This document shows positions 4,982 to 61,455 of a stretch of 64,000 nt of DNA, piece after piece. A program made the translations under genes and the position numbers. The first letter of the stretch is position 1, and each line of letters opens with the position of its first letter. The notes below the pieces were generated by a model. That model was not told where the DNA came from, made no database searches, and saw only the letters and a list, made by a program, of their open reading frames with translations. The DNA comes from an uncultured Myxococcales bacterium (GTDB lineage: Bacteria; Myxococcota_A; Polyangia; Fen-1088), in NCBI GenBank assembly GCA_964443975.1, contig CAYUFS010000023.1, forward strand, positions 1,953 through 65,952, written 5' to 3'.

Positions 4982-5138
4982 CATAAAGACACGTCCCCAT
5001 CGTCGGGTTGGCGACCAAGGCAAGGTAGCTCGCGGTGCGTCGCGGTGAGCCGCCTCCTTCGGCCTTCAGTTTTACCCCCGGGCCGCCGAAGACTCTCTCG
5101 GACCGACCTATCCTAAAGGTGTCGGTCGAGGAGACTTC

Positions 5139-5531
5139 ATGAACTCAGGTGCTGTAGCCAAAGCCCCGGTCGTCGAGCCCCAGCAGCGAGCCGCCGAACG
5201 ACACAACGTCGAGGTCTCGGTCGATCTGGAGAGCGATTCCAATTTCTACACGGGCCTCACCCAGAACATCAGCGCGGGCGGGCTGTTCATCGCCACCCAC
5301 CAGATCAAGCGGGTGGGGGATCGCGTCCATTTGAAGTTCAACTTGCCGGGATCGTCGCGGGCGATCGAATGCGATACGGAGGTGCGCTGGATCCGCGAGA
5401 ACTCGTCGCTCCACCGCACGGACGGCGCCTCCGGAATGGGCGTCCGATTCATCGACATGTCCCCTGCCGACGCCGAGGCGATCCAGGCCTTCATCGAGAG
5501 CCGCGAGTCCCTGTTCTACGACGACGAATGA
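5139..5531 (+). CDS. PilZ-domain protein, a putative c-di-GMP receptor
   Basis: RxxxR...D-S-G-G pattern (RAAERHNVEVSVDLESDSNFYTGLTQNISAGGLFIAT) typical of PilZ. It is 34 nt upstream of the export-gate genes. Confidence 0.7.
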   Translation: MNSGAVAKAPVVEPQQRAAERHNVEVSVDLESDSNFYTGLTQNISAGGLFIATHQIKRVGDRVHLKFNLPGSSRAIECDTEVRWIRENSSLHRTDGASGMGVRFIDMSPADAEAIQAFIESRESLFYDDE

Positions 5532-5564
5532 CGAGGCCGGCGACCGGCCGGTGACCCACCGCGG

Positions 5565-5969
5565 TTGACTCGACGCGGGCTCCTGACGGATAACGCCGTG
5601 ATGGACAGCACGGGTTCGTTACCGGGGGTGGGGGGCTCGCTCGCCGTGTCGCTGGTGTCGCTGGGGGTCGTCTGCCTGATCGCGTACCTGGCGCTCAGGT
5701 TTCTCGGCCGGCGCGGCCTCGGCCGGCCGAATGGACCGATCAAGATCAGGGCGCGCTGCCCGCTCGAGCCGCGGCGGTGCCTGTACGTCGTCGAGACGGC
5801 CGGTCGCTGCTTCCTCATCGGCGTGGGTGACGGCCCCATGACCATGCTCGCCGAGCTGGGCCCGGCCGAGGTCCAGGCATCCCTGGCGGCCCCGCTCGAG
5901 CCGGGCGCGAAGTTCAGCGAGGTGCTCACGCGCGTACTCGGTCGCGGCGCGCGGTCGGAGCGGACATGA
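5565..5969 (+). CDS. FliO-like small membrane protein
   Basis: Single N-terminal TM helix (VSLVSLGVVCLIAYLALRF) followed by a FliO-like C-terminal region (LYVVETAGRCFLIGVGDGPMTMLAEL). Its stop overlaps the SctR/FliP start (ATGA). The start may instead be the internal Met at 5601. Confidence 0.5.
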   Translation: MTRRGLLTDNAVMDSTGSLPGVGGSLAVSLVSLGVVCLIAYLALRFLGRRGLGRPNGPIKIRARCPLEPRRCLYVVETAGRCFLIGVGDGPMTMLAELGPAEVQASLAAPLEPGAKFSEVLTRVLGRGARSERT

Positions 5970-6742
5970 GGCGGCCCGCGTTCGCGGCCGCGCTGACGGG
6001 CGGCTTGCTGGCCCCCCTGTGCGCGCACGCCGCCCGGACGAGCGCCGCTGCCGCCGCGACCGCTGGCGATGGGCTCACGGCGCGGCCGTTGCTGCTGTTC
6101 ATCGTGATGAGCGGGGTGGCGCTGGTGCCGTTCGCGCTGCTGATGACCACCTGCTTCGTCAAGGTGGCGGTGGTGCTGTCCATCCTGCGCAGCGCGATCG
6201 GCGTTCCCCAGGTCCCACCGACGCAGGTCATCACCGGGCTGGCGCTGATCCTCACCGCCTACGTGATGGCCCCCACCGCCGAGCGGACCTACGACGCCGT
6301 GAAGCCGGTCATGTCGCTTGGCGCGGGCGCCGATCTCGCCAGCGCCGCGACGGTGGATGCCCTTCAGCAAGCCGGTGCGCGCGCCAGCGAGCCCTTGCGC
6401 GCGTTCCTGTTGAAGCAGGCAGACCCGCGCGATCGCGCGACGTTTCATGGCCTCGCGCTGCGCATGCGGACGCCTGACCAGCGCGCGACGATCTCGGATC
6501 GCGATCTGATGGTGATCATTCCCGCGTTCGTGACCTCGGAGCTGAAGCGCGCATTCGAGATCGGGTTCTTGCTCTTCATTCCATTCCTCGTGCTCGACCT
6601 GGTCATCTCGAACCTCCTGCTGGCGCTCGGGATGCACATGCTGGCGCCGACGACGGTGTCGCTGCCGTTCAAGCTGCTGCTCTTCGTGCTCGCCGACGGG
6701 TGGCACCTGGTGGCCCGCGGGCTGGTCGAGAGCTACCTGTGA
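5966..6742 (+). CDS. sctR: Type III secretion / flagellar export apparatus protein, SctR/FliP family
   Basis: FALLMTTCFVKVAVVLSILRSAIGVPQVPPTQVITGLALILT is the FliP/YscR family signature, and the 258-aa length fits. Confidence 0.9.
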   Translation: MRRPAFAAALTGGLLAPLCAHAARTSAAAAATAGDGLTARPLLLFIVMSGVALVPFALLMTTCFVKVAVVLSILRSAIGVPQVPPTQVITGLALILTAYVMAPTAERTYDAVKPVMSLGAGADLASAATVDALQQAGARASEPLRAFLLKQADPRDRATFHGLALRMRTPDQRATISDRDLMVIIPAFVTSELKRAFEIGFLLFIPFLVLDLVISNLLLALGMHMLAPTTVSLPFKLLLFVLADGWHLVARGLVESYL

Positions 6743-6746
6743 CGTC

Positions 6747-7028
6747 ATGACCACGGTCGCCACGTCGTCCGAGCTGGTCCTGCGCGCCATCCACGAGGGG
6801 CTGTTACTGGCGCTGCTGGTGTCGGGGCCGCCGCTGCTGGCCAGCCTGCTGGTAGGCTTCGTCGTCGGGATCGTGCAGGCAGCGACGCAGATCCAGGATC
6901 AAGCGCTGGCGTTCGTCCCGAAGCTCGTGGTCGTGGTGGTGACCTTGCTCTCCGTCGGCCCCGTGCTGGGCACGCAGCTGGTCCGGTTCACGCAGGCGCT
7001 GTTGCTCGTCTTCCCTTCCATCAGGTGA
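6747..7028 (+). CDS. sctS: Type III secretion / flagellar export apparatus protein, SctS/FliQ family
   Basis: 93-aa two-TM protein (LLLALLVSGPPLLASLLVGFVVGIVQAATQIQDQALAFVPKL) matching FliQ/YscS. It lies 5 nt after sctR. Confidence 0.85.
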   Translation: MTTVATSSELVLRAIHEGLLLALLVSGPPLLASLLVGFVVGIVQAATQIQDQALAFVPKLVVVVVTLLSVGPVLGTQLVRFTQALLLVFPSIR

Positions 7029-7086
7029 GTGGCGGGCAAATGGGTGGTCGCAAAATGATACTCCGGCCCCTGGGGGCCCGCCGCGC

Positions 7087-7899
7087 GTGATCTCGCCGGG
7101 AGGGGACCGGGAGCGTTGGCTCCTCGCGGTGGGCCTTGGCGCCGCGCGGACGGTGCCGCTTTGCTGGGCCGTCCCCGCGGTCGGCGGGCCGCGCGTCGCG
7201 CCCGAGGTGCGGGCGGGGCTGGGGATCGTGTTGGCCGTCCTCTGCTTGCCGGCGTTGCTCCCCGCGGTGGACACGTCCGTGAGCGCCGCGCCTGGCCCCG
7301 TCGGCTGGACGCTCGTGCTCGCGCGCGAGCTCCTCGTCGGCCTGACCGTCGGCCTCTGCGTTGGGGCGGGCTTTCGCGCCGCCGAGGCGGCGGGGCGGCT
7401 CGCCGATCTCGCCCGCGGCGCCAACCTGGCCGAGGTGTTGTCGCCGATGTCGGACGAGCGCACCAGTCCAACCGGCGATCTCTATCTGTTCGTCGCGGTG
7501 ATCGTGTTCCTCGAGCTGGGTGGGTTGCGAGTGTTCGCGCAAGCGCTCGGGCGGAGCTACGAGGCGGTGCCCGTGGGCGCGTCCTCCGCCCTGTTTCCGG
7601 GCGGCCTGCGGGCCGCCGTGGCGCTAGTCACGGCGGCGGTGGCCAAGCTCATGGAGGCGGCGCTCGGGCTGGCGGCGCCCGTGCTGGTCGCAGCGTTGCT
7701 GGCCGACGCGACGCTGGGCCTGGTGGCGCGCGCCGCACCCCAAATTCCAATCTATTTCGCCGCCATGCCAGCGAAGGCGCTGCTCGGACTCGGCGTGTCG
7801 TTGGTTGGCGTGGGCGCCATCGAGGCCGTGTTCGCCGGGGGCTTTCACGCCTGGGCCGCGATGTTCGACCAGGCCGTCGCCGCATGGCGGCCGAGATAG
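7087..7899 (+). CDS. sctT: Type III secretion / flagellar export apparatus protein, SctT/FliR family
   Basis: 270-aa polytopic membrane protein in the conserved R-S-T order. It probably starts at a GTG. The hydrophobic profile and length match FliR/YscT. Confidence 0.8.
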   Translation: MISPGGDRERWLLAVGLGAARTVPLCWAVPAVGGPRVAPEVRAGLGIVLAVLCLPALLPAVDTSVSAAPGPVGWTLVLARELLVGLTVGLCVGAGFRAAEAAGRLADLARGANLAEVLSPMSDERTSPTGDLYLFVAVIVFLELGGLRVFAQALGRSYEAVPVGASSALFPGGLRAAVALVTAAVAKLMEAALGLAAPVLVAALLADATLGLVARAAPQIPIYFAAMPAKALLGLGVSLVGVGAIEAVFAGGFHAWAAMFDQAVAAWRPR

Positions 7900-7978
7900 G
7901 CAGCGAGATAACGCCGGTGTTCTTCGACGCCCCGAACGGCGATCTTCAGGCCCGGGCGGCTCCTGTCGAAGGACAGCT

Positions 7979-9029
7979 CATGCCGATGGGGTGGCGCAGG
8001 CCCGCTGCTGGGCTGAGAGTCGGGGTGGCGATCGTCTTGATCGCCGGGGTGGTGGCGCGCGCGCGCGGCGCTTCGGCGGCGGGGGCGGCGACCGACCCCG
8101 ACGCCTTCGACGATCCCAAGCTCGCGCGCGAGCCGGCGCCGTTTGCCCCGTCCGCCCCCGCCGCGAAGGCGCCGGAGCCAACGGTCGCGCCAGGGCCCGT
8201 CCCGACGCCTGCTCCGCCGAAGGTCGCCCCTCCTGCGTCCGCGCCGGTCCAGGCGCTCTCGCCGTCGCCTCCCGCCCCGTTGCCTGCGCCGCCGCCGCCG
8301 CCGAAGCTCGCCACGCCGGCGCCAGGTCCCGTCGCCGTGCCAGCGTCGGGTGTCGCGCCGCCGCCGCCTGTCTCGGCGTCTCCGGTGGACAGACCGGCCG
8401 CGCCGTCGCCGCAACCCCAACCGCTTCCGGCCGCGCCGCCGCGGCCGTCGCCGGCCGCAAGCGGTTCCCCGTCAGCCGACCTCAGCGTGAAGGCGCCCCC
8501 TCCCGCAGAGCCAGCTCCCACCGGAGCCTGGCCTTACGCGCCTCGGCTGAAGCTCAGCTATCGACGGTTCTCGTTTTCACGTATGCCCGCGACGGGGACC
8601 TCGTCCACCGCGGCGCCCGTCCCCGAGTCGTTCGAGAGCTTCGGCCTCGATTTCTATCCCATGTCCTGGTACCTGCGCGTCGGTTTCTCGTCGCAGTTCG
8701 GCTGGGAGAGCGGACAGTTTCAACGAACCGGCGATTACTTTCTGGCCGAGTCGGCGTCCGCGGGATTTCAGATTCCAGGCCGATTCACGCCGTTCGCGGA
8801 GGCGTTCGCAGGCGCGGGCTACATGCGCCGCTTCCAGAACGGCGCCACGTCGCCCTCCGCGTACTGGCAGACGGGCGTGGACGCGGGGGTCGAGATCTAT
8901 TTCGCGAAACGCGCCTACGGCAGCGTCGCTCTCGGGTATCTCCACCCGGGTAACCTGTTCCTGCAACAGAAGAACCTGTCGTCGGTGAACGCCGATACGT
9001 GGTCCCTGAAGGTCGGCATCGGCATCTGA
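7979..9029 (+). CDS. Hypothetical membrane-anchored proline-rich protein with a beta-rich C-terminal domain
   Basis: ATG at 7979 gives an N-terminal TM helix (MPMGWRRPAAGLRVGVAIVLIAGVVA), then about 170 aa of Pro/Ala repeats (PAPPKVAPPASAP...), then a C-terminal ~170-aa domain of alternating hydrophobic residues (FGLDFYPMSWYLRVGFSSQFGW...SLKVGIGI). The part of ORF 7116..9029 upstream of 7979 is Arg-rich and presumably not translated. Confidence 0.55.
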
Positions 9030-9107
9030 CCGGGGCTCGCCCGGCTCGCCAGCCCCCAGGATCTGGGGCAATCTCCTCCCAACGTGGCGACGAAGGGGCA
9101 GGTTTGA

Positions 9108-10241
9108 TTGGCGCGGTCGGGCGCTGAACCCACCGAACGACCCACGCCGCGGCGGTTGCTGAAGGCGCGGCAGGGGGGACACGTGCCCATCAGCCGCGAT
9201 CTCTCCTCGGCGATTGTCTTCCTGGCGCTCGGTGGACTGCTGTGGGGTGGGGCGGCGACCGGGGTGGGCCGCCTGCTGGGCTTGTTCCGGGCGACGTTCG
9301 CCGCGCCCTTCGGGTCCTCGATGGCGACGGCGGCGCTGGCCGCGCGCGCGTTCGATGTCGCGATGGCGCTGGTGCTTCCTCCGGTCGTCGTGGCGTGCGC
9401 CGGCGCGCTGCTGGTAGGGGCGCTGCAAACGCGGGGGTTGTTTGCCTGGCGGGCCGTCGCGACCGACGTGACGCGTTTGTCGCCGGCCGTCGGAATGGCA
9501 CGCGTCTTCAGCCCGAAGACGGCCGGCGACATCGCGCAGGGCGTGGTGAAGGTCTTCGTCGTGGCGGCGGCGGCGGTCGTGGGTGTCGAAGCATTGCTGC
9601 GCGGGCTACCGGCTCTGGTCGGGGCGGCGCCCGGCGCGGTGCTGGCCGTGCTCGGTCTCGAGGCGCGGGATCTGGCGATCCGCGGGGCCATGGCGTTCCT
9701 GGCGCTGGGCATTCTCGATGGGGTGCTCGGGCACCGGCGGCACCGCCGGTCGTTGCTGATGACTCGCGAGGAGGTGAAGCGGGACTTGAAGGAGGCCGAG
9801 GGCGACCTGCGCCACAAAGCCGAGCGCCAGCGTCTGCACCGGCAGCTCGGCGAGCGACGACTGAACGAGGATGTCCGAAGCGCGACCGCTGTCGTGGTGA
9901 ACCCCGAGCACATCGCCGTGGCCATCCGCTACGACCGTGATGGGGATCAGGCGCCGGTGGTGCTGGCGAAGGGCGAGCGGCTGCTCGCCGAACGTATCAA
10001 GCAGGTCGCCCGCGAGGCAGGCGTGCCGATCTATCGCGACGTCGCGCTGGCGCGCGCGCTTCACCAGCTCGACGAGGGTGAGGAAATCCCCCAGCCCCTT
10101 TACGAGTCCGTCGCCGAGCTGCTGCGCATGCTGTGGGAGCTCGAGCGCAAGCCGGCGACTTCACCCGCCGTCGCGGTCACCGCGACGGTCACTGATCGAC
10201 CGGACGGCCCGCCCCCGGCAAGCGGCGGACGACGCGTCTGA
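9108..10241 (+). CDS. sctU: Type III secretion / flagellar export switch protein, SctU/FlhB family
   Basis: FlhB-like N-terminus (EPTERPTPRRLLKARQGGHVPISRDLSSAIVFLA) and an autocleavage site NPEHIAVAIRY (the NPTH-type motif). Probable TTG start. Confidence 0.88.
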   Translation: MARSGAEPTERPTPRRLLKARQGGHVPISRDLSSAIVFLALGGLLWGGAATGVGRLLGLFRATFAAPFGSSMATAALAARAFDVAMALVLPPVVVACAGALLVGALQTRGLFAWRAVATDVTRLSPAVGMARVFSPKTAGDIAQGVVKVFVVAAAAVVGVEALLRGLPALVGAAPGAVLAVLGLEARDLAIRGAMAFLALGILDGVLGHRRHRRSLLMTREEVKRDLKEAEGDLRHKAERQRLHRQLGERRLNEDVRSATAVVVNPEHIAVAIRYDRDGDQAPVVLAKGERLLAERIKQVAREAGVPIYRDVALARALHQLDEGEEIPQPLYESVAELLRMLWELERKPATSPAVAVTATVTDRPDGPPPASGGRRV

Positions 10242-10271
10242 GCCGACGACGACGACGAGGAGCGAAGTCAC

Positions 10272-11243
10272 GTGCGTCGACGACAAGCGAGGCTGGAAAA
10301 CCATCACGGGTTCGAGGGCCGGGTCGTCGCCTTCATCCGTCTGGGGCGTCCGCAGTTCCTGGTGGGCGGATTCCTGCTCTACGGGCTCGGCGCGGCGGTC
10401 GCTTGCGCTGCCGTGGCGGGGGTGACGCTCGACGCGCGAACGTACCTGCTCGGACAGGCGGGCATCACCGCCATCCAGCTCATGACCCACTACGCGAACG
10501 AATACTTCGATCTCGGCGCCGATCGAGCCAACCTCACGCCGACCGAATGGTCGGGTGGCAGCCGCGTCCTCGTCTCGGGGGCCCTGTCGCCTCAGGTGGC
10601 CCTGCGCGCGGCGCAGGTGCTGAGGGCTCTCGGGGTCCTGCTCGCCGCGGCCGTATTCTTCGCGGGCGGCCGCGGCGGAAGGGTGGCCGCCGGCGCGCTG
10701 GTCGGCGCGCTGATCCTTGCGTGGGCATACAGCGCGCCCCCGCTTCGGCTGCATTCGCGGGGACTCGGCGAGGTCACGACGGCGATCGTCGTGACGGGCC
10801 TGACGCCGCTCGTCGGATTCGTGCTGCAGTCGGGAGGTCTGGCCGGAGCAGGCGGTCTCGCGCGGGCGTTGCTGCCGCTCGCCGGATTGCAGCTGGCGAT
10901 GTTGCTGGCCATCGAATTTCCAGACGCCGCGGGCGATGCGGCGGCGGGCAAACGAACGCTGGTGGTGAAGCTTGGCGCACGCGTCGCCGCCGCCGTGTAC
11001 CGCGCGCTTCTGGTCGCGATCTATGGCGCGATCCCCCTGCTCCTCATTGGCGGGCTGCCGGGCGGCGCGGCGGGCGCGGCCGCGTCGCTCGCCCCTGTGG
11101 CCGCGTGGCAATTCTGGGTGCTCGGCCGCGGCGCCTGGGGTGATGCGCGGCAATGGGAAGGCATGGCGTTCCGGGCCGTGGCGATGCTGATCGGCACCAC
11201 CGCAGCCGAGCTGGCCGCGTTCCTCTGGATCATTTGGCGGTAG
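10272..11243 (+). CDS. UbiA-family aromatic prenyltransferase
   Basis: Polytopic membrane protein with an Asp-rich motif NEYFDLGADRAN (NDxxDxxxD-like) and a second Asp-rich region (FPDAAGDAAAG). The 323-aa length fits. GTG start 28 nt after sctU. Confidence 0.8.
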   Translation: MRRRQARLENHHGFEGRVVAFIRLGRPQFLVGGFLLYGLGAAVACAAVAGVTLDARTYLLGQAGITAIQLMTHYANEYFDLGADRANLTPTEWSGGSRVLVSGALSPQVALRAAQVLRALGVLLAAAVFFAGGRGGRVAAGALVGALILAWAYSAPPLRLHSRGLGEVTTAIVVTGLTPLVGFVLQSGGLAGAGGLARALLPLAGLQLAMLLAIEFPDAAGDAAAGKRTLVVKLGARVAAAVYRALLVAIYGAIPLLLIGGLPGGAAGAAASLAPVAAWQFWVLGRGAWGDARQWEGMAFRAVAMLIGTTAAELAAFLWIIWR

Positions 11244-11348
11244 GCGCCGACAGCCTCCCAGGCCGCCGGTTCGACGATGACGCGTTTCGAGGACGAAACG
11301 GGCGCCGGGTGATTGGAGCGTGACTTTCATTGAGCCTGGGTCCCCGAC

Positions 11349-12467
11349 GTGTCAGGTTGTCCCCGGGAGGACCTATTGCCTGTCATCACCAGCGTCGCCA
11401 CCGCGGTCCCGAGGTTCTCGGCGACGCAGGACGAGACCAAGGCGGCGTTCGGACCACTGTTCGGGCTCGAGGGCCGTCGATTCGAAGCGACGATGTCGCT
11501 GTTCGACAACGCGGAGGTGGGCACACGCTACAGCGTGTTGCCGCTCTCCGAGCTGGTCCTGACCCGCTCCCTCACGGAGACGATGCGCCTCTATGCGGAC
11601 CACGTGCGCCGCCTCGGCGAGAGCGTGGCCCGCGCCTGTCTCGCCCAGGTGGCGATGTCGCCGGAGGCGCTCGACCTGATCGTCTCGGTGTCTTGCACGG
11701 GCGTCATGATCCCCTCGGTCGACGCGTTCCTGATGGATGCCCTCGGGACGCGCCGGGACGTGGTGAGGCTGCCCATCACCGAGCTCGGGTGCGTGGGCGG
11801 CGCCGCCTCGGTGGCGCGGGCCAACGACTTCTTGCGGGCGCACCCCGACCGGCGCGCGCTGGTCCTGGCCATCGAGCTGCCCAGCCTCAGCCTGCAACGG
11901 CGCGACGTCTCCATGGACAACCTGGTCGCGTCCGCCTTGTTCGGCGACGGCGTCGCGGCCGTGCTGATGGTCGGTGACGCCACGCCCGAGGCGATCGCCG
12001 CGCAGGCGGGCGGGTCGGCGCGCACCGGGGCAATCCGGATCGTCGATACCCTGTGCCACACCCGGCCGAGCAGCACCGATGCCCTGGGGTTCGATCTACA
12101 CGAGGACGGCTTTCATGCGGTGCTGGCGAAGCAGGTCGCCGGCATCGTGCGCGCCGATCTGTACGCGCTCGTGCAGCGGTTGACCGAGCGGGCGAACATC
12201 GACCCTGGCAAGCTCGGCGCGTTCGTCCTGCATCCCGGTGGGAAGAAGATTCTCGGCGCGGCCGAGGAGGCGCTTGGCCTGACGCGCGAACAGACCCAAC
12301 CATCGTGGGATGTCCTGCGCGCGTATGGCAACCAGTCGAGCGCCTCGGTGCTGTTCGTGCTCGACCGCTGGATGACCGCACGTCGGCCGGCGCGCGGTAC
12401 GCAGGGCGTGATGGCGGCGTTCGGGCCGGGGCTGACCACGGAGCTTTCGCTGCTCGAATGGCTATGA
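11349..12467 (+). CDS. Type III polyketide synthase, chalcone/stilbene synthase superfamily (RppA/SrsA-like)
   Basis: Catalytic Cys context SVSCTGVMIPS, plus GCVGG, HPGGKKIL, YGNQSSASVLFVL and FGPGLT. It aligns well by eye with bacterial RppA/Srs-type enzymes. An alternative TTG start at 11376 is preceded by GGGAGG. Confidence 0.9.
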   Translation: MSGCPREDLLPVITSVATAVPRFSATQDETKAAFGPLFGLEGRRFEATMSLFDNAEVGTRYSVLPLSELVLTRSLTETMRLYADHVRRLGESVARACLAQVAMSPEALDLIVSVSCTGVMIPSVDAFLMDALGTRRDVVRLPITELGCVGGAASVARANDFLRAHPDRRALVLAIELPSLSLQRRDVSMDNLVASALFGDGVAAVLMVGDATPEAIAAQAGGSARTGAIRIVDTLCHTRPSSTDALGFDLHEDGFHAVLAKQVAGIVRADLYALVQRLTERANIDPGKLGAFVLHPGGKKILGAAEEALGLTREQTQPSWDVLRAYGNQSSASVLFVLDRWMTARRPARGTQGVMAAFGPGLTTELSLLEWL

Positions 12468-13072
12468 CACCCGAAGTGTGGTGGTTCGTGGGGTTGCTCT
12501 GCGCGGTGGGCGTGGGGCGGCTCGTCGAGATGCGTGTGTCGCGCCGACATCAGAAGCGTCTGGCAGCGGTGGGACTCAATCGCGCCCGCGAGCCGGCGTT
12601 CGGGCTGATGGTGTTGCTCCACGCGGGGGTGCTGGTGGGGGTGGCGCTAGAGGTCGTCATCGCGCGCCGCCCGTTGCTCCCGTGGCTGGCCCTGCCATCG
12701 CTGGCCGCGTTCGTGCTGGCGAATATGTTGCGGCTCTGGGTCATCCGCACCCTGGCGGAGCACTGGAACGTGAATGTCGTCAACTCCCTCGCGCTGGGGA
12801 TCGTGACCTCCGGGCCTTACCGGTGGGTGCGCCACCCCAACTACGTGGCTGTGTTCGTCGAGCTCGTGGCGCTGCCCCTCGTGCACACGGCGTACGTCAC
12901 GGCGCTCTTCGGGGCGGCTCTGCACCTCGTGGTCCTCGGTCGCCGGCTGGCGGTCGAGGACGGCATCTTGCTCGCCGATCCGGGTTACCGGGCGGCGATG
13001 GCGGGGAAGCCCCGGTTTCTGCCGCAGCTCGGGGAGCTGTTGTCGTCGTCGGCGCGGGTGCCACCCGCATGA
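12458..13072 (+). CDS. Isoprenylcysteine carboxyl methyltransferase (ICMT)-family membrane methyltransferase
   Basis: GPYRWVRHPNY motif with a C-terminal E...L in a multi-TM protein. The ATG overlaps the PKS stop by 10 nt, indicating translational coupling. The ORF-track entry 12053..13072 is an upstream extension. Confidence 0.8.
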   Translation: MAMTPEVWWFVGLLCAVGVGRLVEMRVSRRHQKRLAAVGLNRAREPAFGLMVLLHAGVLVGVALEVVIARRPLLPWLALPSLAAFVLANMLRLWVIRTLAEHWNVNVVNSLALGIVTSGPYRWVRHPNYVAVFVELVALPLVHTAYVTALFGAALHLVVLGRRLAVEDGILLADPGYRAAMAGKPRFLPQLGELLSSSARVPPA

Positions 13073-14220
13073 ACGCGGATGTGTTGATCGCGGGCGGGGG
13101 ACCGGCCGGGTCGGCGCTCGCGATCCTCGCGGGGCGGGCGGGCCACTCGGTCTCGCTGTTCGACGGCGCGCGGTTTCCGCGCGAGAAGCCTTGCGGAGAA
13201 GGCCTGATGCCCTCCGGGGTCGGCGCGCTCGAGCGCCTCGGGCTCGCGGCGGCCACCGGAGGCGTGCCAATCGGCGGCATTCGCTACCACGGATTTGGCC
13301 TCACCGCGGAGACGGCGTTTCCGGCTCCCCGCCCGGGGCGTGGCCGCGTTGGTCCAGCCGCGCACGGTCTCGGTCAGCGACGGATCGTCTTCGACGACGC
13401 GCTGTGGGCGGCGGCGCGGGCGACGCCGAATGTGCGCGTGTTCGAGGACGCCGCGGTGGAAGGGGTCGTGTGTCGGGCGGGCCGGGCCGTCGGGCTGCGG
13501 GTCGCGGGGCAGACTGTCTCGGGTGGACTGATGGTGGGCGCGGACGGCGCGCGGTCGGTGGTGCGGCGCGCGGTGGGGTTGGAAGGGCCGCGCACCGAAC
13601 GTCCCCGCTGGGGCCTGCGCATGCACTTCCGGCTGGCCGCCGATCGGCCGGCGCCCAATTTCGTCGAGGTGTTCGTCGGTGACGGCCACGAGCTCTACCT
13701 GACGCCTTTGCCCGCGGGCGAGGTGCTGGTCGCGGTGCTGAGCGCGCACGGGCACCACGAGGATCGCCCGGCGCAGACCTTGCGGGCGTTCATCGACCGG
13801 CACCCGGCGCTCGTCGAGCGCCTGCGCGGGGCCGAGGCGGTGTCGGCGCCCCGGGGCCGCTCGCCGCTCGCCTCGACGGCGCGCGCGGGCGTTGCCCCGG
13901 GGGTGGTGCTGCTCGGCGACGCGGCCGGGTTCACCGATCCGCTCACCGGCGGCGGGATGGCGCAGGCGTTGCTGTCCGCCGAGCTGCTCGCTCCCTACCT
14001 GGGGCGGGCGCTCGGGGAGCGCGACGACGAATGGTTGTGGCGCTTCGATCGGCGGCGGCGCGCGATGCTGCGCGACTATGTCTGGCTCACGCGGTTGATG
14101 GTGCGCGCGGCCGGGCGTCCGCTGCTGGCGCGCGGCACTCTGAAGGCGATGCGGGCCTCCCCGGCGCTGATGCGGCACCTGGTCGGCGTGGCGGCGGGCC
14201 TGCGCCGCATCATCTTCTAA
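13069..14220 (+). CDS. FAD-dependent oxidoreductase, a flavin monooxygenase / geranylgeranyl-reductase-like fold
   Basis: N-terminal dinucleotide fold MNADVLIAGGGPAGSALAILAGRAGHSVSLFD, plus GADGARSVVRR and GDAAGFTDPLTGGGM motifs. ATGA overlap with the methyltransferase stop. Confidence 0.8.
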   Translation: MNADVLIAGGGPAGSALAILAGRAGHSVSLFDGARFPREKPCGEGLMPSGVGALERLGLAAATGGVPIGGIRYHGFGLTAETAFPAPRPGRGRVGPAAHGLGQRRIVFDDALWAAARATPNVRVFEDAAVEGVVCRAGRAVGLRVAGQTVSGGLMVGADGARSVVRRAVGLEGPRTERPRWGLRMHFRLAADRPAPNFVEVFVGDGHELYLTPLPAGEVLVAVLSAHGHHEDRPAQTLRAFIDRHPALVERLRGAEAVSAPRGRSPLASTARAGVAPGVVLLGDAAGFTDPLTGGGMAQALLSAELLAPYLGRALGERDDEWLWRFDRRRRAMLRDYVWLTRLMVRAAGRPLLARGTLKAMRASPALMRHLVGVAAGLRRIIF

Positions 14221-14312
14221 ACTCGCCCGCGCCAACGCGACTTCTGAACCTGATCGCCAACGCGTTGGCGTGCGGCGCTGGGGGCCGTACAATCGCTCCC
14301 GTGAGGACAAAG

Positions 14313-15220
14313 ATGCGCGTGCGTAAAGCGGTGATGCCGGTGGCGGGGCTGGGAACGCGGTTTCTTCCCGCGACGAAGGCGGTGCCCAAGGAGATGCTGC
14401 CCATCGTGGACGTCCCGACGGTGCAGTTGAACGTCGAGGAGTGCGTGGCGAGCGGCATCGAAGAGATCATCTTCGTGACCGCGCGGGGCAAGGGCGCCAT
14501 CGAGGACCACTTCGATCGGGCCGCCGAGCTGGAGGCGTTGCTCGAGCGCAAGGGCCGCAAGAGCGAGCTCGAGACGATCCGGAAGCTCACGACGATGGCG
14601 AAGTTCGTTTCGGTCCGCCAGGGCGAGGCGCGCGGTCTCGGTCACGCGGTGCTGTGCGCGCGCGAGGCCATCGGCGACGAGCCGTTCGCGGTGCTGCTCG
14701 GTGATGACCTGTTCGTGGGCCAACCGCCGGGACTGGCGCAGCTCCTGGCCGTCTACGATCGCCAGGGCGTGGGCGTGGTCGGGCTGCAAGAGGTACCCGC
14801 CGGGCAAGAACACCTCTACGGTATCGTGGGCGGGGAGCGGATCGACGACGGGGCCACCGGGGACCGCAATGGGTTGAAGCCGACGCTGCGTCTCTCGAAG
14901 CTGGTCGAGAAGCCGGCGCCAGGGACAGCGCCGTCGCGACTGGCGATCATCGGTCGATACGTGCTGCCTCCCGAGATCTTTCCCATCCTCGAACGCACGC
15001 CGCCGGGCCGCGGGGACGAGATCCAGCTGACCGATGCGATGGCGACCCTCTGCGCCGAGCAGGGAATGTGTGGCGTCGAGCTCGCGGGCCGGCGCTTCGA
15101 CGCCGGGGATCGGTCGGGCTACGTGCTGGCGGTGCTGTATCACGCGCTTCGACGGGCGGACATCGGCGCCGAGGTGCAAGCGGGAGCCGAGCGCCTGCTG
15201 GCCGAGCTGCGCGCCAGCCA

Positions 15221-15224
<4 letters not shown>
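14313..15224 (+). CDS. galU: UTP--glucose-1-phosphate uridylyltransferase
   Basis: VMPVAGLGTRFLPATKAVPKEMLPIVD N-terminal signature and VEKP motif. 304 aa. Confidence 0.9.
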
Positions 15225-17782
<2,558 letters not shown>

Positions 17783-17863: not shown

Positions 17864-18781
17864 ATGGCGACCTTCAAGCGATCCCTTCCCCTGGTGTGGT
17901 GCGCGGCCCTCGCCTGGCTGGCGGCGCCGTCGTGCGGCTCGAGCGGTAGCTCGAGCGGGGGCAGCGGCGGCGTCTCCGCGAGCGGCGGCCGTGTCGGCAC
18001 GGGTGGCGGCACCAGCAGCGGTGGTTCTCCTGCGGGCGTCGGTTCGGGAGGCGCGGGCGTTGGTTCGGGGGGATCGGGATCGGGCGGCCTCGCATCGACG
18101 GGCGGGGTGACGACTCCTCCTGGAAGCGGCGGGGCCTCGGCAACGGGAGGCAACGTCGCGACGGGCGGCGTCGCGCCGACGGGTGGTGTCGGAGGTGGCA
18201 GCCTGGCGGCGGGCGGAGCGGGAGGCGGCAGTGGTGGCAACGCCGCTGGTGGAGGGCCGGCTTCGGGTGGCCGCGGCAGCGGGGCTGGGGGCGGACCCAG
18301 CGCAGCGGGTGGGTCAGCCGGCTTCGCGCTCACCAGCCCCACGCTCACCGAGGGCGGCATGTTTCCCGCCGTGAACACATGCGCCGGCGCTGACACGTCT
18401 CCGGAGCTCGATTGGACGGCGGGCCCCGCGACCGCGAAGGCTTACGCGCTCGTCCTCACCGACATGGCCAACAACCTGGTTCATTGGGTTCTGTGGGACA
18501 TCCCGGTCGCCACGCAGTCTCTCCCCGCCATGCTGCCCAACACACCGATGCTCACCACTCCCGCGGGTGCACGCCAGGTCGCGGTCCAGGGCACCGGCTA
18601 CACAGGCCCTTGCCCGAGTGGAAACGTTCACACCTATCAGTTCGACCTGCACGCGGTCGACGTCGCCATGCTTCCCGGCGTCGCCGCCAACGCGACCTCA
18701 GCGCAGGTGAAGGCGCTGGTGATGATGCACTCGCTCGGGAAGGCGTCCCTCAGCGCGATGTCGAACGCCAAGCGCCCGTGA
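17864..18781 (+). CDS. Lipoprotein with a Gly/Ser-rich linker and a C-terminal PEBP (YbhB/YbcL, Raf-kinase-inhibitor-like) domain
   Basis: Signal peptide with lipobox LAAPSCG, about 130 aa of GGSGG-type linker, then the PEBP signature (ELDW...YALVLTDMANNLVHWVLWDIP...GPCPSGNVHTYQFDLHAVD). Confidence 0.75.
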   Translation: MATFKRSLPLVWCAALAWLAAPSCGSSGSSSGGSGGVSASGGRVGTGGGTSSGGSPAGVGSGGAGVGSGGSGSGGLASTGGVTTPPGSGGASATGGNVATGGVAPTGGVGGGSLAAGGAGGGSGGNAAGGGPASGGRGSGAGGGPSAAGGSAGFALTSPTLTEGGMFPAVNTCAGADTSPELDWTAGPATAKAYALVLTDMANNLVHWVLWDIPVATQSLPAMLPNTPMLTTPAGARQVAVQGTGYTGPCPSGNVHTYQFDLHAVDVAMLPGVAANATSAQVKALVMMHSLGKASLSAMSNAKRP

Positions 18782-29364: not shown

Positions 29365-30723
29365 TCAGGCGAGCATGGAGGTGATGACCCCCGACTGGCC
29401 GCCCATGCTGGTGGTGACGCCCACCGCCTTGGCCAGCGTGTTCAACATGGTGGCGGTCGAGGCGCTGCCCGCGTCGACGTATTGACCCTTCTTCAAGAAG
29501 CCGCTCGCGGTTCCGGCCATGAGGAACGGCAACGGCCCGAAGCCGTGGTCGGGGCCAGTCGACAGCTGATTCGTGTTGACGGCGACCCCTTGATCGAGGA
29601 GCGGGCCCGTCGCCGTCTGCACCGCCGAGAGCTGGTCGAGAAAGTACTTGAAGTGGTTGATCTGAATCCGGTCGATGGCCTGGCATAGCGTGTACGAGTT
29701 GGGGAGCGTCCGGTGCGAGGCCGTGTGGAACTGCACGCTGGTCCCGTTGACCGTGTACACATGGTCGTCCTCTCGGTCTCCCACCTGCAACACGGCGACG
29801 CGTGTGTATCCCGACGACAGCGCGAACACCATCAGATCCATGTGGAGGGTCTGGATGAGCTCGTGGTTTTCGCCTGCGTAGGGCGACGCATCGACGGTGG
29901 TCATCTGGGAAATCTTGTCCGCCGACAGCGTGGCGTTGGTGATCTTGATCTCCATGTCGCGAATGGTCGAAAAGTGCTGGTCCAGTCGCTGCTGGTCGTC
30001 GGCGGTGAGCTCGGGGCGCGCGCGCAGCGCGGTGATTTGCGCGCGCAGGAGGTCGTTGACGCTCTTGCGCCGGAGCGCGAGCGGATCCGCGGCGCCGCCC
30101 GTGGTGGTGCCGAGGGTGCCGATCATTCTCTGATACGCCTTCAGGGGCGAATCGATCGCGGGTCGCTGCTGCCCGCCCGCGATGTAGGAGATATAGGACG
30201 GCACGTTGAAGCCGGAGCCCCCCGCCGAGTACATGCCCGCGTGCAGGAACAGCGGATCGACGCCGGGGGGATTGATGGCCTTGGCGATCACGGTGTCGAC
30301 GGACACGCTCGAAGACACGGCCTGGTTCGAGTTGCCGCTGACCGTCGGGGTGCCGGTGAGGATCTGCGCGCACGCCGAGGCGTGGTTGCAGCCCGTCGCC
30401 GACGCGGAATGGGACACGCCGCGGACGAGCAGCAGCCGGTCCGCGTACACCGCGAGCTCGCCCGTCGCGCGCGTCGGGTTGTCGGCCAGCATGCCCGCCT
30501 GGGTCAGGGCGCCGAGCTTCGTGGGCCACCAGGCCTCGGCCTCGCCGGTCTTGGCCTGCACCACGCCGTTGGCGCTGCAGACGATCCCGAGGAACGGCGG
30601 CGTGGCAGCCCACGCCCTCCTGGGCAGAGAGGCCTCGAGGATCGGCAGGCCGAGGGTCACGGCCCCGGCTCCCACGAGGAACTGGCGGCGACCGAACCGG
30701 CGCTGCTCGCGAATGGGGTTCAT
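29365..30723 (-). CDS. DUF1552-family protein with a twin-arginine signal
   Basis: An internal Met gives MNPIREQRRFGRRQFLVGAGAVTLGLPILEASLPRRAWA (RRQFL Tat motif). The family assignment comes from length and the conserved partner gene. The ORF-track form extends to 31212 through Arg-rich sequence. Confidence 0.65.
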   Translation of the reverse strand: MNPIREQRRFGRRQFLVGAGAVTLGLPILEASLPRRAWAATPPFLGIVCSANGVVQAKTGEAEAWWPTKLGALTQAGMLADNPTRATGELAVYADRLLLVRGVSHSASATGCNHASACAQILTGTPTVSGNSNQAVSSSVSVDTVIAKAINPPGVDPLFLHAGMYSAGGSGFNVPSYISYIAGGQQRPAIDSPLKAYQRMIGTLGTTTGGAADPLALRRKSVNDLLRAQITALRARPELTADDQQRLDQHFSTIRDMEIKITNATLSADKISQMTTVDASPYAGENHELIQTLHMDLMVFALSSGYTRVAVLQVGDREDDHVYTVNGTSVQFHTASHRTLPNSYTLCQAIDRIQINHFKYFLDQLSAVQTATGPLLDQGVAVNTNQLSTGPDHGFGPLPFLMAGTASGFLKKGQYVDAGSASTATMLNTLAKAVGVTTSMGGQSGVITSMLA

Positions 30724-32594
30724 CAGGGCGCCTCCACGCGGGTCACGAACGCGTCGTCCGACACCAAGGCCACCATCAGATCGACGCTGGAGATATTCTG
30801 GCCGAGCGATCGTTGCGCAGCGGCGGCCGCCGCGGTCAGGTCGCCCGCGCGCGGGATGCGCGAATAGAGATCGGCGGTCCAGCTGGTGGCGTAGCATGAG
30901 TGGAGTTGCTGGCTCTCCGCGAGCGCGTTGCTGAAGTCCACTTCGTTCGTGAACGACTTCGTTCCGTCGGTGAAGGGATAGCTGCCCGATGTGTCGATGG
31001 GCTGGCCGTTCTCCGTCGTCCGATAGACTCCCAGGCCGTTGAAGTTCTCGAAGGCGAATCCGGCGGGGTTGATGAACACGCCGTGACAGCTGGCGCCGCA
31101 CGTCCCGGGGCCGGTTATGCCGTTCACGATCTGGCGATTGGTCTGGTTCGTTCCGATCGGCGAGGGGATCGTCGGCAGGACGACCCCGGGCGGGGTCGAC
31201 ATCTCCTTGCACAGGAGGCGGCGGTTGATGTACACGCCCCGGTGGATCGAGTCCTGGGTGCTGCCGTCGTGGCCGTAGTAGGCGAGAAATCCGAGGCGCG
31301 TCAGGACGCCGGGGCGCTGTGTAGGATCGAGCTGAACCTGGGTCCAGGTGTTCGCCGAAAAGCTGCCGGTGAGACCGTAAAGGCTGGCGACGGTGCTGTT
31401 CACGAACGTGACCGGCGACGTGAAGATGTCTCGCAGGGTGCCGTTCTGGGCGAAGAGGTACTGGAGGAACTGCTGCGTCTCGGTGTGTAGCAGGGGACCC
31501 ACGGCGGCCGTGAAGGCGGGCGCGACCGCGGGATCCTTCTCGAGCGTGTCGTACTGGCCGAGCCCGAAGAACTGGAAATAGAAGCGATCCACCGCCGACT
31601 TCCCCGCGGCCGTGGCGATCAAGCGCCGCGCGTGCGCGGCGATCGCGTCTGTCCCAGCCAGCGCCGCCTGATCGGCGGCAGCCGCCAGCGTCGCATCGGG
31701 CAGGGAGTTCGTGAGCGCGTAGGACAGATTCGCCGCGATCTCGTAGTCGGTGAGGCGGGCGCGCCCCTGGACGGCGGTGTCGCCGAAGCCCGTTCGATAA
31801 AGAAAATAGGGCGATTGCAGCACGGCCTCGAGGGTGACCTTCACTCCCGCGGCAAACGTCGTCAGGCCTGTCGTCAGGCTCGGAGCCTGGTTGAACAACG
31901 TCAGGTACGCTTGCGTCTCGTCCGAGGTCAGGGGTCGCCGGAACGCGCGCCGCCCGAAGGATTGAATGAAGGACGTGGCCTTACCGGTGGCGTCGGTGGG
32001 GGCGTTGCTCGGCACCAGACGGGCGATGGCGGTGGCGTCGCCGGCGACTTGCCCGGCGAGGCTCTCCGCCGCGGATTGCAGATCGTCGTGCAAGGCCTGA
32101 TTCACGAACAGCGAGTCCGCCTCGTTGTCGAGCCGCACGACGGCGTCGGCGGTCGGCAAGGTCAAAGGCCCCGGATTCGGCAGCATCAGGAGGTCACGCA
32201 CGCTGTTCGCCCATTGGAGCTGACTGAGGCGCGAGATGGTCGGTGTGGCGACGATGGCCGCCACGCCCGGGTCGCTCCCCCCCGAGCCGGTCGCGGCTCC
32301 CGTCCCGCCGATCGCATTGCCCGTTCCGCCGCCCGTCACGCTACCGGTCCCGCCGCCGGTTCCGGGACCAGCGCCACCCGAGGCTGCGGACGTCGCGTTG
32401 CCGCCGGACCCCGGCGAAGCGCCGCCGCCAGTCCCCGAGGTCGGTGTGGCGCCGCCGCTTGCGGACGTGGCGCTCTGGCCACCTGATTGCCCGCCCCCGT
32501 CCGGGGCCGCTTGACCGCTGCCAACGACGCCCGTGCAAGCCCCCATCCCGACGAGGCAGGCCATGAAGCAGCAGGTTCCAGCGCGAGATTTCAC
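30723..32594 (-). CDS. DUF1592/DUF1588/DUF1585-type large secreted protein, partner of DUF1552
   Basis: About 620 aa with an N-terminal hydrophobic Cys-containing signal, a Gly/Ser linker and a C-terminal region (HGVFINPAGFAFENFNGLGVYR). Its stop shares a base with the DUF1552 ATG. The GTG start at 32594 is uncertain; the alternative ATG is 32564. Confidence 0.6.
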   Translation of the reverse strand: MKSRAGTCCFMACLVGMGACTGVVGSGQAAPDGGGQSGGQSATSASGGATPTSGTGGGASPGSGGNATSAASGGAGPGTGGGTGSVTGGGTGNAIGGTGAATGSGGSDPGVAAIVATPTISRLSQLQWANSVRDLLMLPNPGPLTLPTADAVVRLDNEADSLFVNQALHDDLQSAAESLAGQVAGDATAIARLVPSNAPTDATGKATSFIQSFGRRAFRRPLTSDETQAYLTLFNQAPSLTTGLTTFAAGVKVTLEAVLQSPYFLYRTGFGDTAVQGRARLTDYEIAANLSYALTNSLPDATLAAAADQAALAGTDAIAAHARRLIATAAGKSAVDRFYFQFFGLGQYDTLEKDPAVAPAFTAAVGPLLHTETQQFLQYLFAQNGTLRDIFTSPVTFVNSTVASLYGLTGSFSANTWTQVQLDPTQRPGVLTRLGFLAYYGHDGSTQDSIHRGVYINRRLLCKEMSTPPGVVLPTIPSPIGTNQTNRQIVNGITGPGTCGASCHGVFINPAGFAFENFNGLGVYRTTENGQPIDTSGSYPFTDGTKSFTNEVDFSNALAESQQLHSCYATSWTADLYSRIPRAGDLTAAAAAAQRSLGQNISSVDLMVALVSDDAFVTRVEAP

Positions 32595-32786
32595 CAAAAG
32601 GGTCCTTTCACGCCCGCTGGGCTGGCGGCAGGTGGCCAGATCGGCGGGTAAGAAGTTCGGCCTCCCGCAGTGCCGGCAGCGGGGCAGAAGGTCCACCCGC
32701 TTTGCAGAATCTCCCCATTTGAACGGGGTGCACATGCACCTACACGCAGGCCGAGGGGGAGCGGCCCGGTGCGGGCCGCATCCGCC

Positions 32787-44545: not shown

Positions 44546-44662
44546 GCCGGGCGCGCCGTCGCGGCCAGGTCGCGTGCAACCGAGCTTCCAGAACCTCACC
44601 CGCCGAATCATGGACCTCGACTGGGCCACGCGTCAGGGGGCGGCCATGGTAAGGGTTGGGCC

Positions 44663-52423: not shown

Positions 52424-53407
52424 TCAGCGCGCGGGAGAAATGGTGACGTGGACGAGGGTCTGATTGAGCAACTGGAAGGCAATCTCGCCGAACGTCATGG
52501 GACCAAGGAGTGACCCCGTTCGGTGGTTTTCGAGCTCGCCGTAGAGGTAATTGAGCACGCAATTGCAGGTGAACACGGGCGCCCCGACGTCCGAGGGGAT
52601 CGAGGCGAGGAAACGTTGCGGATAGCTCTCGATGGGGCGGGCGAATCGATACGACACGCCCTCGAACACGGGGGCGTAGAGCTTGACGGTCGCGCTTTGC
52701 GCGTCGAGCGCCTGAATGCTGACGTTGATCAGCGCGCCGCAAAAATTGGCGACCAGGGGCAGGCGGGTGTCGAGGCGCTTGCCCACTACGTAGTCGTGGA
52801 AGTTCCGACGCTCACCGTTGATCGTGCAGTCCTTCACCCCGAAGCCCGAGGCAGGGAAGGTGATCTCATCTCCGTCCGCGGCGGGCTCGAAGATGTTGAC
52901 GATACCGATCTGCGCGCGGTGGGATTCGGGCAAGTCGACGTGAAGCGCCACCCCGCGATCCGACAGCACCTCGCCGGTCATGCCGTTGAAGACCTTCGGG
53001 GTTTTCTTGCCGAGATCATCGAGGTGAATCCCCGAGATCCACCCGGCCACCGTCTTCAGGAACAGGTCCTTGTAGAGCGGCGCCTCGAGCGCGTATTGCT
53101 GGTGGATGGGCGTGAAGGCAGGGAGGATCAGGATGGTGTAGCCGTTCTCCGGGGAGTCCTCGCCAATCTTGGCGATGGTGCTCACGTCGTAGACCGTGGC
53201 GGTCCGCGGGTGCGCGAACGGCGGGGCCACCTCCACGAAGATGCCCGTGCGAGATGTCTTGCCGCCCTCCTCGGTCATGAAGTAAGGGATGGTGCCTCCG
53301 ATCCAACTGCCGCGAGGCACGGCGCGCAGCACATCCTCCTCCGCGGCGAGGACGAGGGTCTTGCCGGCCGCCAAAAGTTCCTTCACTTGGTCGATGGTCG
53401 CGAACAT
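52424..53407 (-). CDS. Possible FIST-domain sensor protein
   Basis: The C-terminal block LGPMTFGEIAFQLLNQTLVHV resembles the FIST_C consensus (GEI...NqT) as I recall it. About 327 aa. Confidence 0.35.
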   Translation of the reverse strand: MFATIDQVKELLAAGKTLVLAAEEDVLRAVPRGSWIGGTIPYFMTEEGGKTSRTGIFVEVAPPFAHPRTATVYDVSTIAKIGEDSPENGYTILILPAFTPIHQQYALEAPLYKDLFLKTVAGWISGIHLDDLGKKTPKVFNGMTGEVLSDRGVALHVDLPESHRAQIGIVNIFEPAADGDEITFPASGFGVKDCTINGERRNFHDYVVGKRLDTRLPLVANFCGALINVSIQALDAQSATVKLYAPVFEGVSYRFARPIESYPQRFLASIPSDVGAPVFTCNCVLNYLYGELENHRTGSLLGPMTFGEIAFQLLNQTLVHVTISPAR

Positions 53408-53417
53408 GCGCTTCTCC

Positions 53418-58000: not shown

Positions 58001-58017
58001 AGAACAGGGAGGCCATC

Positions 58018-61443: not shown

Positions 61444-61455
61444 AATCCGCTGCCG

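Follow-up and report, generated by a model that had tools for sequence, protein, structure and literature searches.

A type III polyketide synthase locus with a UbiA-family prenyltransferase in uncultured Polyangia, a candidate for prenylated phenolic lipid or quinone biosynthesis

Four co-directional genes spanning 3.95 kb were studied in a 64-kb stretch of DNA from an uncultured Myxococcales bacterium (contig CAYUFS010000023.1, the whole stretch being referred to as the window; G+C ~70%). They code for a UbiA-superfamily prenyltransferase, a type III polyketide synthase (PKS), an ICMT-family membrane methyltransferase and a flavin adenine dinucleotide (FAD)-dependent oxidoreductase. We consider it fairly probable, judging from gene content and from related loci, that the four genes direct the synthesis of a long-chain phenolic lipid of the membrane, or a quinone, of the srs/pkq/agq type, which is methylated, hydroxylated and prenylated. 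The domain calls for all four open reading frames (ORFs) are above the Pfam curated cut-offs. The locus has the following features:

10272-11243, + strand: UbiA-superfamily membrane prenyltransferase, 323 amino acids (aa); Pfam UbiA 70 bits; GTG start with a GAGGAG ribosome-binding site before it
11330-11358, + strand: promoter-like or regulatory element TTGAGC-N12-CGTGTCAGGTT, ~20 nucleotides (nt) 5' of the PKS start, conserved among loci
11376-12467, + strand: type III PKS, 363 aa (TTG start at 11376, alternative GTG at 11349); Pfam Chal_sti_synt_N/C 68 and 64 bits
12458-13072, + strand: ICMT-family integral-membrane methyltransferase, 204 aa; Pfam ICMT 78 bits
13069-14220, + strand: FAD-dependent oxidoreductase, 383 aa; Pfam FAD_binding_3 67 bits

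Organisation of the locus and linkage of UbiA to the PKS trio

The nearest relatives of the window are metagenome-assembled Polyangia (Myxococcota), one of which (locus L001) has an identical gene order and 83% PKS identity. The PKS-ICMT-FAD trio was found with its order kept in Myxococcales and Polyangia loci, in two loci labelled only "uncultured proteobacterium" and in one Terriglobia locus, while a Candidatus Acidoferrum locus (L007) has the PKS and ICMT genes and no flavoprotein match. Window-type UbiA genes at trio loci (54-91% identity) are located at most 3.5 kb from the trio and occur in at least three arrangements within the window PKS clade. UbiA is co-directional and 5' of the trio in the window, L001, L009-L011 and L013/L017, which share the flanks rpoA-rplQ-PilZ-fliOPQR-X-flhB and galU-priA (L001 extends upstream only to fliQ). 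It is convergent and directly follows the flavoprotein gene in L015/L016, L027, L028, L067 and one JGI contig, all in unrelated contexts, and is convergent with one gene in between in L018.

The distribution of UbiA was also counted in a hidden Markov model census of 105 loci and the first 26 kb of the window, 80 of the loci having been gathered from metagenomes with the clade alignment as seed and the rest having been fetched earlier. Among loci of the Phe-type PKS clade (described below) with adequate flanks, UbiA is present in seven of the 12 FAD-containing loci and in none of the 15 with only PKS and ICMT (Fisher p ~9e-4, the loci being phylogenetically non-independent). Occurrence of UbiA only with flavoprotein-containing loci fits a prenyltransferase that needs a hydroxylated (hydroquinone) ring. 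The at least three distinct arrangements are a stronger argument than the census counts and support a functional link between UbiA and the trio, so that the prenylation step suggested in a preliminary description of this DNA gains ground from the recurrent linkage. Members of the sub-clade with PKS and ICMT only include L007, L033, L039, L045, L051, L058, L068, L074 and others, with no flavoprotein or UbiA gene within 8 kb.

The genes of the trio overlap. The PKS stop codon (TGA, 12465-12467) lies beyond the methyltransferase ATG at 12458, which gives a 10-nt overlap (a second ATG at 12464 would give an ATGA junction), and the methyltransferase stop (TGA, 13070-13072) forms an ATGA with the flavoprotein start at 13069. 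Overlaps of 10 and 4 nt are likewise found in L013 and L015, and of 1 and 4 nt in L009. The most likely PKS start is TTG 11376, which has a GGGAGG ribosome-binding site on its 5' side and matches the N-termini of homologues (MPVITSV). The UbiA stop at 11243 is then followed by a gap of 132 nt (105 nt with the GTG at 11349), and therefore three genes are translationally coupled, not four. The preliminary description, made from the sequence of the window alone, had proposed four co-directional genes with overlapping stops and starts. Its coordinates, strand, domains and both overlaps inside the trio stand, but UbiA and PKS do not overlap and coupling across all four genes has to be given up.

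Alignment of the UbiA-PKS gap of the window, L001, L009 and L013 revealed the conserved block TTGAGC-N12-CGTGTCAGGTT, readable as a -35 box TTGAGC, a 17-nt spacer and a -10 box CAGGTT. It has a single match in the 64-kb window against 0.01 expected. The 11-mer CGTGTCAGGTT is exact in L001, L018 and L027, each time just 5' of the PKS gene, and variants with one mismatch are present in L009 and L013. In L001 the -35-like hexamer is TTGAGT at 23 nt from the -10-like box, and only the downstream 11-mer is conserved there. L018 and L027 keep the 11-mer 5' of PKS although their UbiA is downstream and convergent. Since the element accompanies PKS wherever UbiA sits, it belongs to the PKS trio and is probably the trio's own promoter or regulatory site. 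The element came from comparing loci; a generic sigma-70 scan had given no site between UbiA and PKS. The possibility that the gaps contain a structured RNA or a terminator was rejected, as 9000-15500 has no Rfam match at E<=1 and no terminator-like site on the + strand. A different conserved block, GTGATCC(T/G)CGGCCTTGTGCGAAA...CCTTAGNTTCGC, is located ~40-100 nt 5' of PKS in three trio loci without UbiA (L003, L004, L019), so that this sub-lineage may have a promoter or regulator site of its own.

Because UbiA is uncoupled from PKS and the trio has a promoter-like element of its own, a single obligatory four-gene operon is doubtful; the earlier proposal of one such operon does not agree with an internal element that is kept where UbiA is located elsewhere. 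UbiA starts 30 nt after the flhB/sctU-type gene (4 nt after flhB in L013), so it may be transcribed from upstream. The trio would then be transcribed from its own promoter in the UbiA-PKS gap and UbiA from upstream, with read-through into the trio possible.

Predicted functions of the four enzymes

Two Streptomyces loci have a UbiA gene divergent to a PKS-ICMT-FAD trio, on a plasmid of Streptomyces sp. NBC_00184 (L021) and on the chromosome of S. parvus (L106, CP159802.1 403551-416477), a species which we take to belong to the S. griseus clade. Their trios were used as proxies for the Srs/Agq proteins, with the following identities to the window proteins:

PKS: 40% to L021, 36.5% to L106
ICMT: 40% to L021, 45% to L106
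FAD: 41% to L021, 36.5% to L106

Similar identity across all three proteins is as expected if the trio was inherited as a unit. The srsABC genes, coding for a type III PKS, an ICMT-type methyltransferase and a monooxygenase, lead to methylated, hydroxylated alkylresorcinols and alkylquinones (PMC6669644, PMC9927152). The preliminary description had recognised srsABC logic in the window genes, and this holds: the gene content is as published and all three proteins are homologous to those of the Streptomyces trios.

We infer the following chemical steps and their order. The type III PKS would extend a long fatty acyl thioester starter three times, with malonyl or methylmalonyl units, and cyclise the chain to an alkylresorcinol or alkylresorcylic acid, which the ICMT-family membrane enzyme would O-methylate. 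Ring hydroxylation by the flavoprotein would give a methoxy-alkylhydroquinone in equilibrium with the quinone, and the UbiA-family enzyme would attach a prenyl group, O- or C-linked, to the hydroquinone.

The PKS is predicted to be a long-chain alkylresorcinol or alkylresorcylic-acid synthase, alkylpyrone formation being possible as well. Its Cys139/His286/Asn319 triad (numbered from the TTG start) is invariant in 119 homologues, and JGI names many PKS homologues "alkylresorcinol/alkylpyrone synthase". Relatives with solved structures are M. tuberculosis Pks11 (182 bits), CylI (156), tetrahydroxynaphthalene synthase (THNS, 144), Steely1 (133) and Pks18 (128). Assignment as DpgA was rejected (166 bits against a 425-bit cut-off).

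Phe239 occupies the position of ArsB Trp281, Pks11 Trp230 and THNS Tyr224, and is invariant in all 119 clade members and all related loci; the Streptomyces trio PKSs have Trp there. For this comparison Tyr232 of the 1u0m chain was assumed to be Tyr224 of THNS. No characterised member of the Phe-type clade was identified here. A large sister sub-clade, likewise of the Phe type (42-45% identity, motif MGFDLRDSGF), is found only as a PKS+ICMT pair. The Phe239 position is reported to steer cyclisation and is held by Trp281 in ArsB, Gly284 in ArsC and Leu266 in Pks18 (PMC6274091, PMC7064976, PMC5916927). The aromatic "steric wall" (PMC6274091) is retained by the window Phe.

An RppA-like PKS had been offered in the preliminary description as an alternative. 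Such an enzyme would convert malonyl-CoA to 1,3,6,8-tetrahydroxynaphthalene (THN), from which methylation, oxidation and prenylation would lead to a naphthoquinone meroterpenoid; a MenA-like prenyltransferase would be suitable for a naphthoquinol substrate. The PKS clade of the window does have the equivalent of THNS Cys106 (SCTG), an aromatic residue at position 224 and the GFH motif common to both enzymes. Of the active-site cysteines specific to THNS (106, 168, 171 and 184) the first three were compared, and Pro and Ser replace Cys168 and Cys171; Ser is found at the Ala305 position. Neighbour-joining (NJ) trees were built from the window clade, Pks11, THNS, Steely1, the Streptomyces trio PKS, an RppA-like PKS located beside mvk, DpgA and others. 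The window clade is robust (bootstrap 92-100%) and stands beside THNS in 15-30% and beside the Pks11/SrsA-like set in 0-4% of bootstrap replicates, values obtained by a distance method from a small reference set whose sole srs-like sequence is the Streptomyces trio PKS. In contrast, pairwise identity slightly favours the Pks11/SrsA-like group (35-40% vs 30-37%), and Pks11 outscores THNS by 182 to 144 bits. The partner enzymes also speak for lipid synthesis, as the methyltransferase and the flavoprotein are homologous to those of Streptomyces trios with srsABC gene content. To our knowledge, ICMT-type membrane methyltransferases are paired in every characterised case (BpsAB, SrsAB, FtpAB) with a PKS for long-chain lipids, and the prenyltransferases of THN meroterpenoid clusters are soluble enzymes of the ABBA type. 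We therefore find a THN-derived product very unlikely, chiefly on grounds of gene context.

The methyltransferase has the RHPNY motif and 4-5 hydrophobic segments. It matches at Pfam domain level only and was rejected as a true protein-S-isoprenylcysteine O-methyltransferase (35 bits against a 160-bit NCBIfam equivalog cut-off). By family and gene position it is the predicted counterpart of SrsB/PkqB and would O-methylate the phenolic lipid.

The flavoprotein can likewise be considered, by analogy of family and gene position, a counterpart of SrsC/PkqC, and is predicted to hydroxylate the ring to a hydroquinone/quinone. It contains the motifs GGGPAG (GxGxxG), DGARS (DGxxS) and GDAAG. In NCBIfam its best match is the geranylgeranyl-reductase superfamily (TIGR02032, 128 bits against a cut-off of 158.8), followed by MenJ (83 bits) and UbiH-type hydroxylases. 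Its PCGEGL motif aligns with the CGEG of the archaeal digeranylgeranylglycerophospholipid reductase. These matches, and the co-occurrence of UbiA with FAD-containing loci only, would agree with a reductase that saturates the UbiA-transferred prenyl chain (cf. the dihydrogeranyl group of Agq products) and does not hydroxylate the ring. A YxWxFP motif is characteristic of geranylgeranyl reductases, and the window protein has YLTPLP in its place. Moreover, the same flavoprotein family, including PCGEGL, is found in trios with and without UbiA, and the flavoproteins of the Streptomyces trios likewise have their best match, below threshold, in this superfamily, and SrsC is reported to hydroxylate the ring (PMC9927152, PMC6669644). 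A prenyl reductase was thus rejected as the leading interpretation, and we hold it to be highly improbable.

The UbiA protein has ~8 hydrophobic segments and the Asp-rich motifs N76xxxD80xxxD84 and D218xxxD222. Its family profile matched chlorophyll synthase (32 bits) and UBIAD1 (21 bits) in PDB and no other solved structure, and the enzyme belongs, by sequence, to the MenA/ChlG/UBIAD1-like part of the superfamily. It was rejected as a true MenA, the best NCBIfam matches being 46 bits vs a cut-off of 264 and 44 vs 277. JGI names the window type "DHNA octaprenyltransferase" and the Streptomyces type "4-hydroxybenzoate polyprenyltransferase". The window UbiA and the trio-linked UbiA of Streptomyces have no significant BLASTP similarity (E=22; best local match 24 aa, E=0.065). 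The latter has annotated homologues in S. anulatus, S. globisporus, S. microflavus and other species.

Residues 87-98 of the window UbiA (~10530-10565) form the loop N-x-T-P-T-x-W-S-G-G-S-R directly after the first Asp-rich motif. The loop is invariant in the subfamily, was not seen in the aligned UBIAD1 sequence and may be a substrate-specific cap. Among stand-alone members of the subfamily, the one of L012 (7179-8972) is located beside a gene of the OMP-decarboxylase family and genes for Rieske, ferredoxin and pyridine-nucleotide oxidoreductase proteins, and that of L014 (8001-10234) overlaps a Pfam-less 414-aa ORF. Such neighbours hint at other substrates for the window-type subfamily.

A more specific product would be a polyketide-derived isoprenoid quinone in which a methoxy-alkylbenzoquinol is C-prenylated by a MenA/ChlG-like transferase and which works as a respiratory electron carrier. 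We judge this version quite unlikely.

Several points weigh against a prenylated phenolic lipid or quinone as the product of all four genes. No UbiA gene lies within 8 kb of five trio loci (L002-L006), and in three other loci (L008, L012, L014) a UbiA homologue stands alone, so the link between UbiA and the trio is facultative. UbiA may be co-transcribed with the secretion-gate genes instead of the trio, and the census counts are drawn from phylogenetically related loci. The window PKS has Phe and not the Trp of the resorcinol-forming ArsB, SrsA, FtpA, PKS10 and PKS11, in which Trp is conserved (PMC5916927); therefore, resorcinol rather than pyrone cyclisation is not assured. In the NJ trees the window PKS clade has no well-supported sister group. 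Finally, the best family match of the flavoprotein is to geranylgeranyl reductases, below threshold, and its role as a hydroxylase is assigned by analogy with SrsC.

In an alternative reading the trio alone would be the pathway, making a non-prenylated methoxy-alkylquinone comparable to the SrsABC or PkqABC products, and UbiA would be a housekeeping or unrelated gene between flhB and the trio. The 132-nt gap with its trio-specific promoter-like element, the position of UbiA 30 nt (in L013, 4 nt) behind flhB, the trios without UbiA and the UbiA genes without a trio are all in line with this. However, this UbiA subfamily has been placed next to the trio in three or more unrelated arrangements and contexts, only where the flavoprotein is present, and the enzyme is not a bona fide MenA (46 vs 264 bits). 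Actinobacterial trios independently have a UbiA neighbour of their own, and AgqD is proven in such a pathway (PMC3227686). A trio-only pathway thus appears unlikely, though worth keeping in view, and we favour participation of the prenyltransferase.

Genomic surroundings

The locus is flanked by an flhB/sctU-type gene (9108-10241) upstream and by galU (14322-15224), then priA, downstream. In the window (5049-10241, + strand), L009, L013 and L017, rpoA-rplQ is followed by genes for PilZ, FliO, FliP, FliQ/Bac_export_3, FliR/Bac_export_1, an unannotated ORF and FlhB/Bac_export_2; flhA, fliI and structural genes did not turn up among the window ORFs scanned. The preliminary description had called this an unusual housekeeping context. 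The secretion-gate and galU/priA flanks are there as described, but the synteny is kept only in one Polyangia lineage. A functional link to fliOPQR-flhB was rejected, as the synteny is limited to L001, L009, L013 and L017, and L015, L018, L027 and the JGI contig have unrelated contexts. We read the fliOPQR-X-flhB / galU-priA context as inherited synteny and not as a functional link.

The unannotated ORF between fliR and flhB (7905-9029, + strand) codes for a Pfam-less protein of ~374 aa, rich in Pro and Ala in its N-terminal half and in Gly and aromatic residues in its C-terminal part. Pfam-less ORFs of 330-492 aa are found at its position in L009 and L013. A sigma-70-like site (TTGGCG-17-TACAAT, 14265-14293) is located 5' of galU, and the stop codon of galU overlaps with a GTG suitable as start of priA (GTGA, 15221-15224), with a 4-nt galU/priA overlap in L013 as well.

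Genes for starter activation or prenyl donor supply adjacent to the cluster were looked for and rejected: no fatty acyl-AMP ligase, acyl carrier protein (ACP) or prenyl-diphosphate synthase was found near it among the window ORFs scanned. The sole polyprenyl synthase found is a short-chain polyprenyl diphosphate synthase (53846-55225, + strand) located 40 kb from the PKS cluster with no link shown. Its best NCBIfam match is "family 2 encapsulin cargo polyprenyl transferase" (172 bits against a 450-bit cut-off), and a DUF6976 protein gene (52424-53545, - strand, 434 bits) is divergent to it.

Further along, 57901-63966 has a G+C of 0.59-0.60 vs ~0.70 and may be an acquired region. It contains a 1180-aa ORF whose sole match is an N-terminal Rossmann/FAD motif and, on the opposite strand, an 836-aa AAA_16/TPR (STAND-like) ORF. 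A lipase-maturation-factor (LMF1) homologue (42950-44632, - strand), a PSD/PSCyt (DUF1592/1595/1588) protein (30723-32786, - strand) and a Gly/Ser-rich PEBP-family protein (17864-18781, + strand) are ordinary for such genomes and unrelated to the cluster.

Implications and comparison with known systems

If the proposed pathway is right, prenylated polyketide hydroquinones and quinones are not restricted to actinomycetes and would be a type of membrane lipid to which soil bacteria have come repeatedly, at least twice combining the same PKS-methyltransferase-hydroxylase core with unrelated UbiA-superfamily prenyltransferases. In Myxococcota, the locus is also a specific candidate for the source of a polyketide-derived quinone, which bears on the idea of polyketide-quinone respiration from mycobacteria and Streptomyces. 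Should the product be an isoprenoid quinone, it would be a ubiquinone- or plastoquinone-like carrier made without the shikimate pathway, a prenylated relative of the mycobacterial polyketide quinones. The pathway would then occur widely among uncultured soil Myxococcota and lineages near them, Myxococcota and Actinomycetota having recruited their prenyltransferases independently. The invariant Phe of this large type III PKS clade makes the clade a direct test case for the rule that the residue decides between resorcinol and pyrone cyclisation. Practical value is modest: the cluster is small, easy to express and has a clear liquid chromatography-mass spectrometry readout.

With srsABC and pkqABC the window shares the order of PKS, ICMT-type methyltransferase and flavoprotein and their tight coupling, homology being judged via the Streptomyces proxies. 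In contrast to the window, the published three-gene systems lack a prenyltransferase and their PKS has Trp where the window has Phe. The pkqABC genes of M. smegmatis lead to polyketide quinones that are alternative electron carriers (PMC9927152, PMC5916927). UbiA genes are found beside srs-like trios in Gephyromycinifex (in the same order as in the window), Jiangella and Micromonospora (PMC8779670, PMC13608877, PMC7587189), whereas the srs cluster of S. griseus has no UbiA counterpart (PMC13608877).

The RppA/THNS enzymes resemble the window PKS in fold, catalytic triad, the Cys106-equivalent cysteine and the aromatic residue at 224, but they are less similar to it than Pks11, have the Cys168/Cys171 pair that it is missing and occur in a wholly different gene context. 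Pairs of the bpsAB type consist of coupled PKS and ICMT genes, the same two-gene form as in the sister sub-clade (15 loci, full flanks). Unlike the window they have no flavoprotein or prenyltransferase, and their products are methylated pyrones or resorcinols, not quinones.

The ftp cluster of Myxococcus xanthus has genes for a fatty acyl-AMP ligase and an ACP and is not known to contain one for a UbiA protein. Compared by description, this "alkylpyrone" cluster is like the window in belonging to the same phylum and in combining a type III PKS for phenolic lipids with a methyltransferase (PMC12766979, PMC10896814). The "alkylpyrone" biosynthetic gene cluster is reported as one of five conserved in Myxococcota, and as not conserved in the Polyangiia genera analysed (PMC12766979).

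The closest counterpart in enzyme content is agqABCD of Actinoplanes missouriensis, which has a type III PKS, a flavin monooxygenase, a methyltransferase and a membrane UbiA-like prenyltransferase. Biosynthesis of alkyl-O-dihydrogeranyl-methoxyhydroquinones by agqABCD was reportedly the subject of a paper by Awakawa et al. in 2011 (ChemBioChem 12:439). The gene order, which we assume to be PKS, monooxygenase, methyltransferase and prenyltransferase, differs from that of the window. The products are 6-alkyl-4-O-dihydrogeranyl-2-methoxyhydroquinones (PMC3569393, PMC3227686, PMC7692728, PMC10896814), and the UbiA-like prenyltransferase O-prenylates the alkyl-methoxyhydroquinone (PMC3227686, PMC7692728, PMC10896814). 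The two clusters belong to different phyla, and AgqD, compared here by description only, was likened to the UbiA that takes part in making ubiquinone (PMC3227686); the enzyme of the window is MenA/ChlG/UBIAD1-like.

Overall, the presence of UbiA, which had been taken for an addition to the srs scheme, has precedent in agqABCD and several actinobacterial clusters (PMC7692728, PMC3227686, PMC8779670, PMC13608877). The four-enzyme combination is therefore not new, given the characterised agqABCD and the Streptomyces trios with a divergent UbiA. The core trio is common to different phyla, and the prenyltransferase appears to have been recruited from different branches of the UbiA superfamily. What is new is that the genes belong to a myxobacterial lineage, that their prenyltransferase is of an unrelated subfamily and that their PKS falls in a clade of the Phe type.

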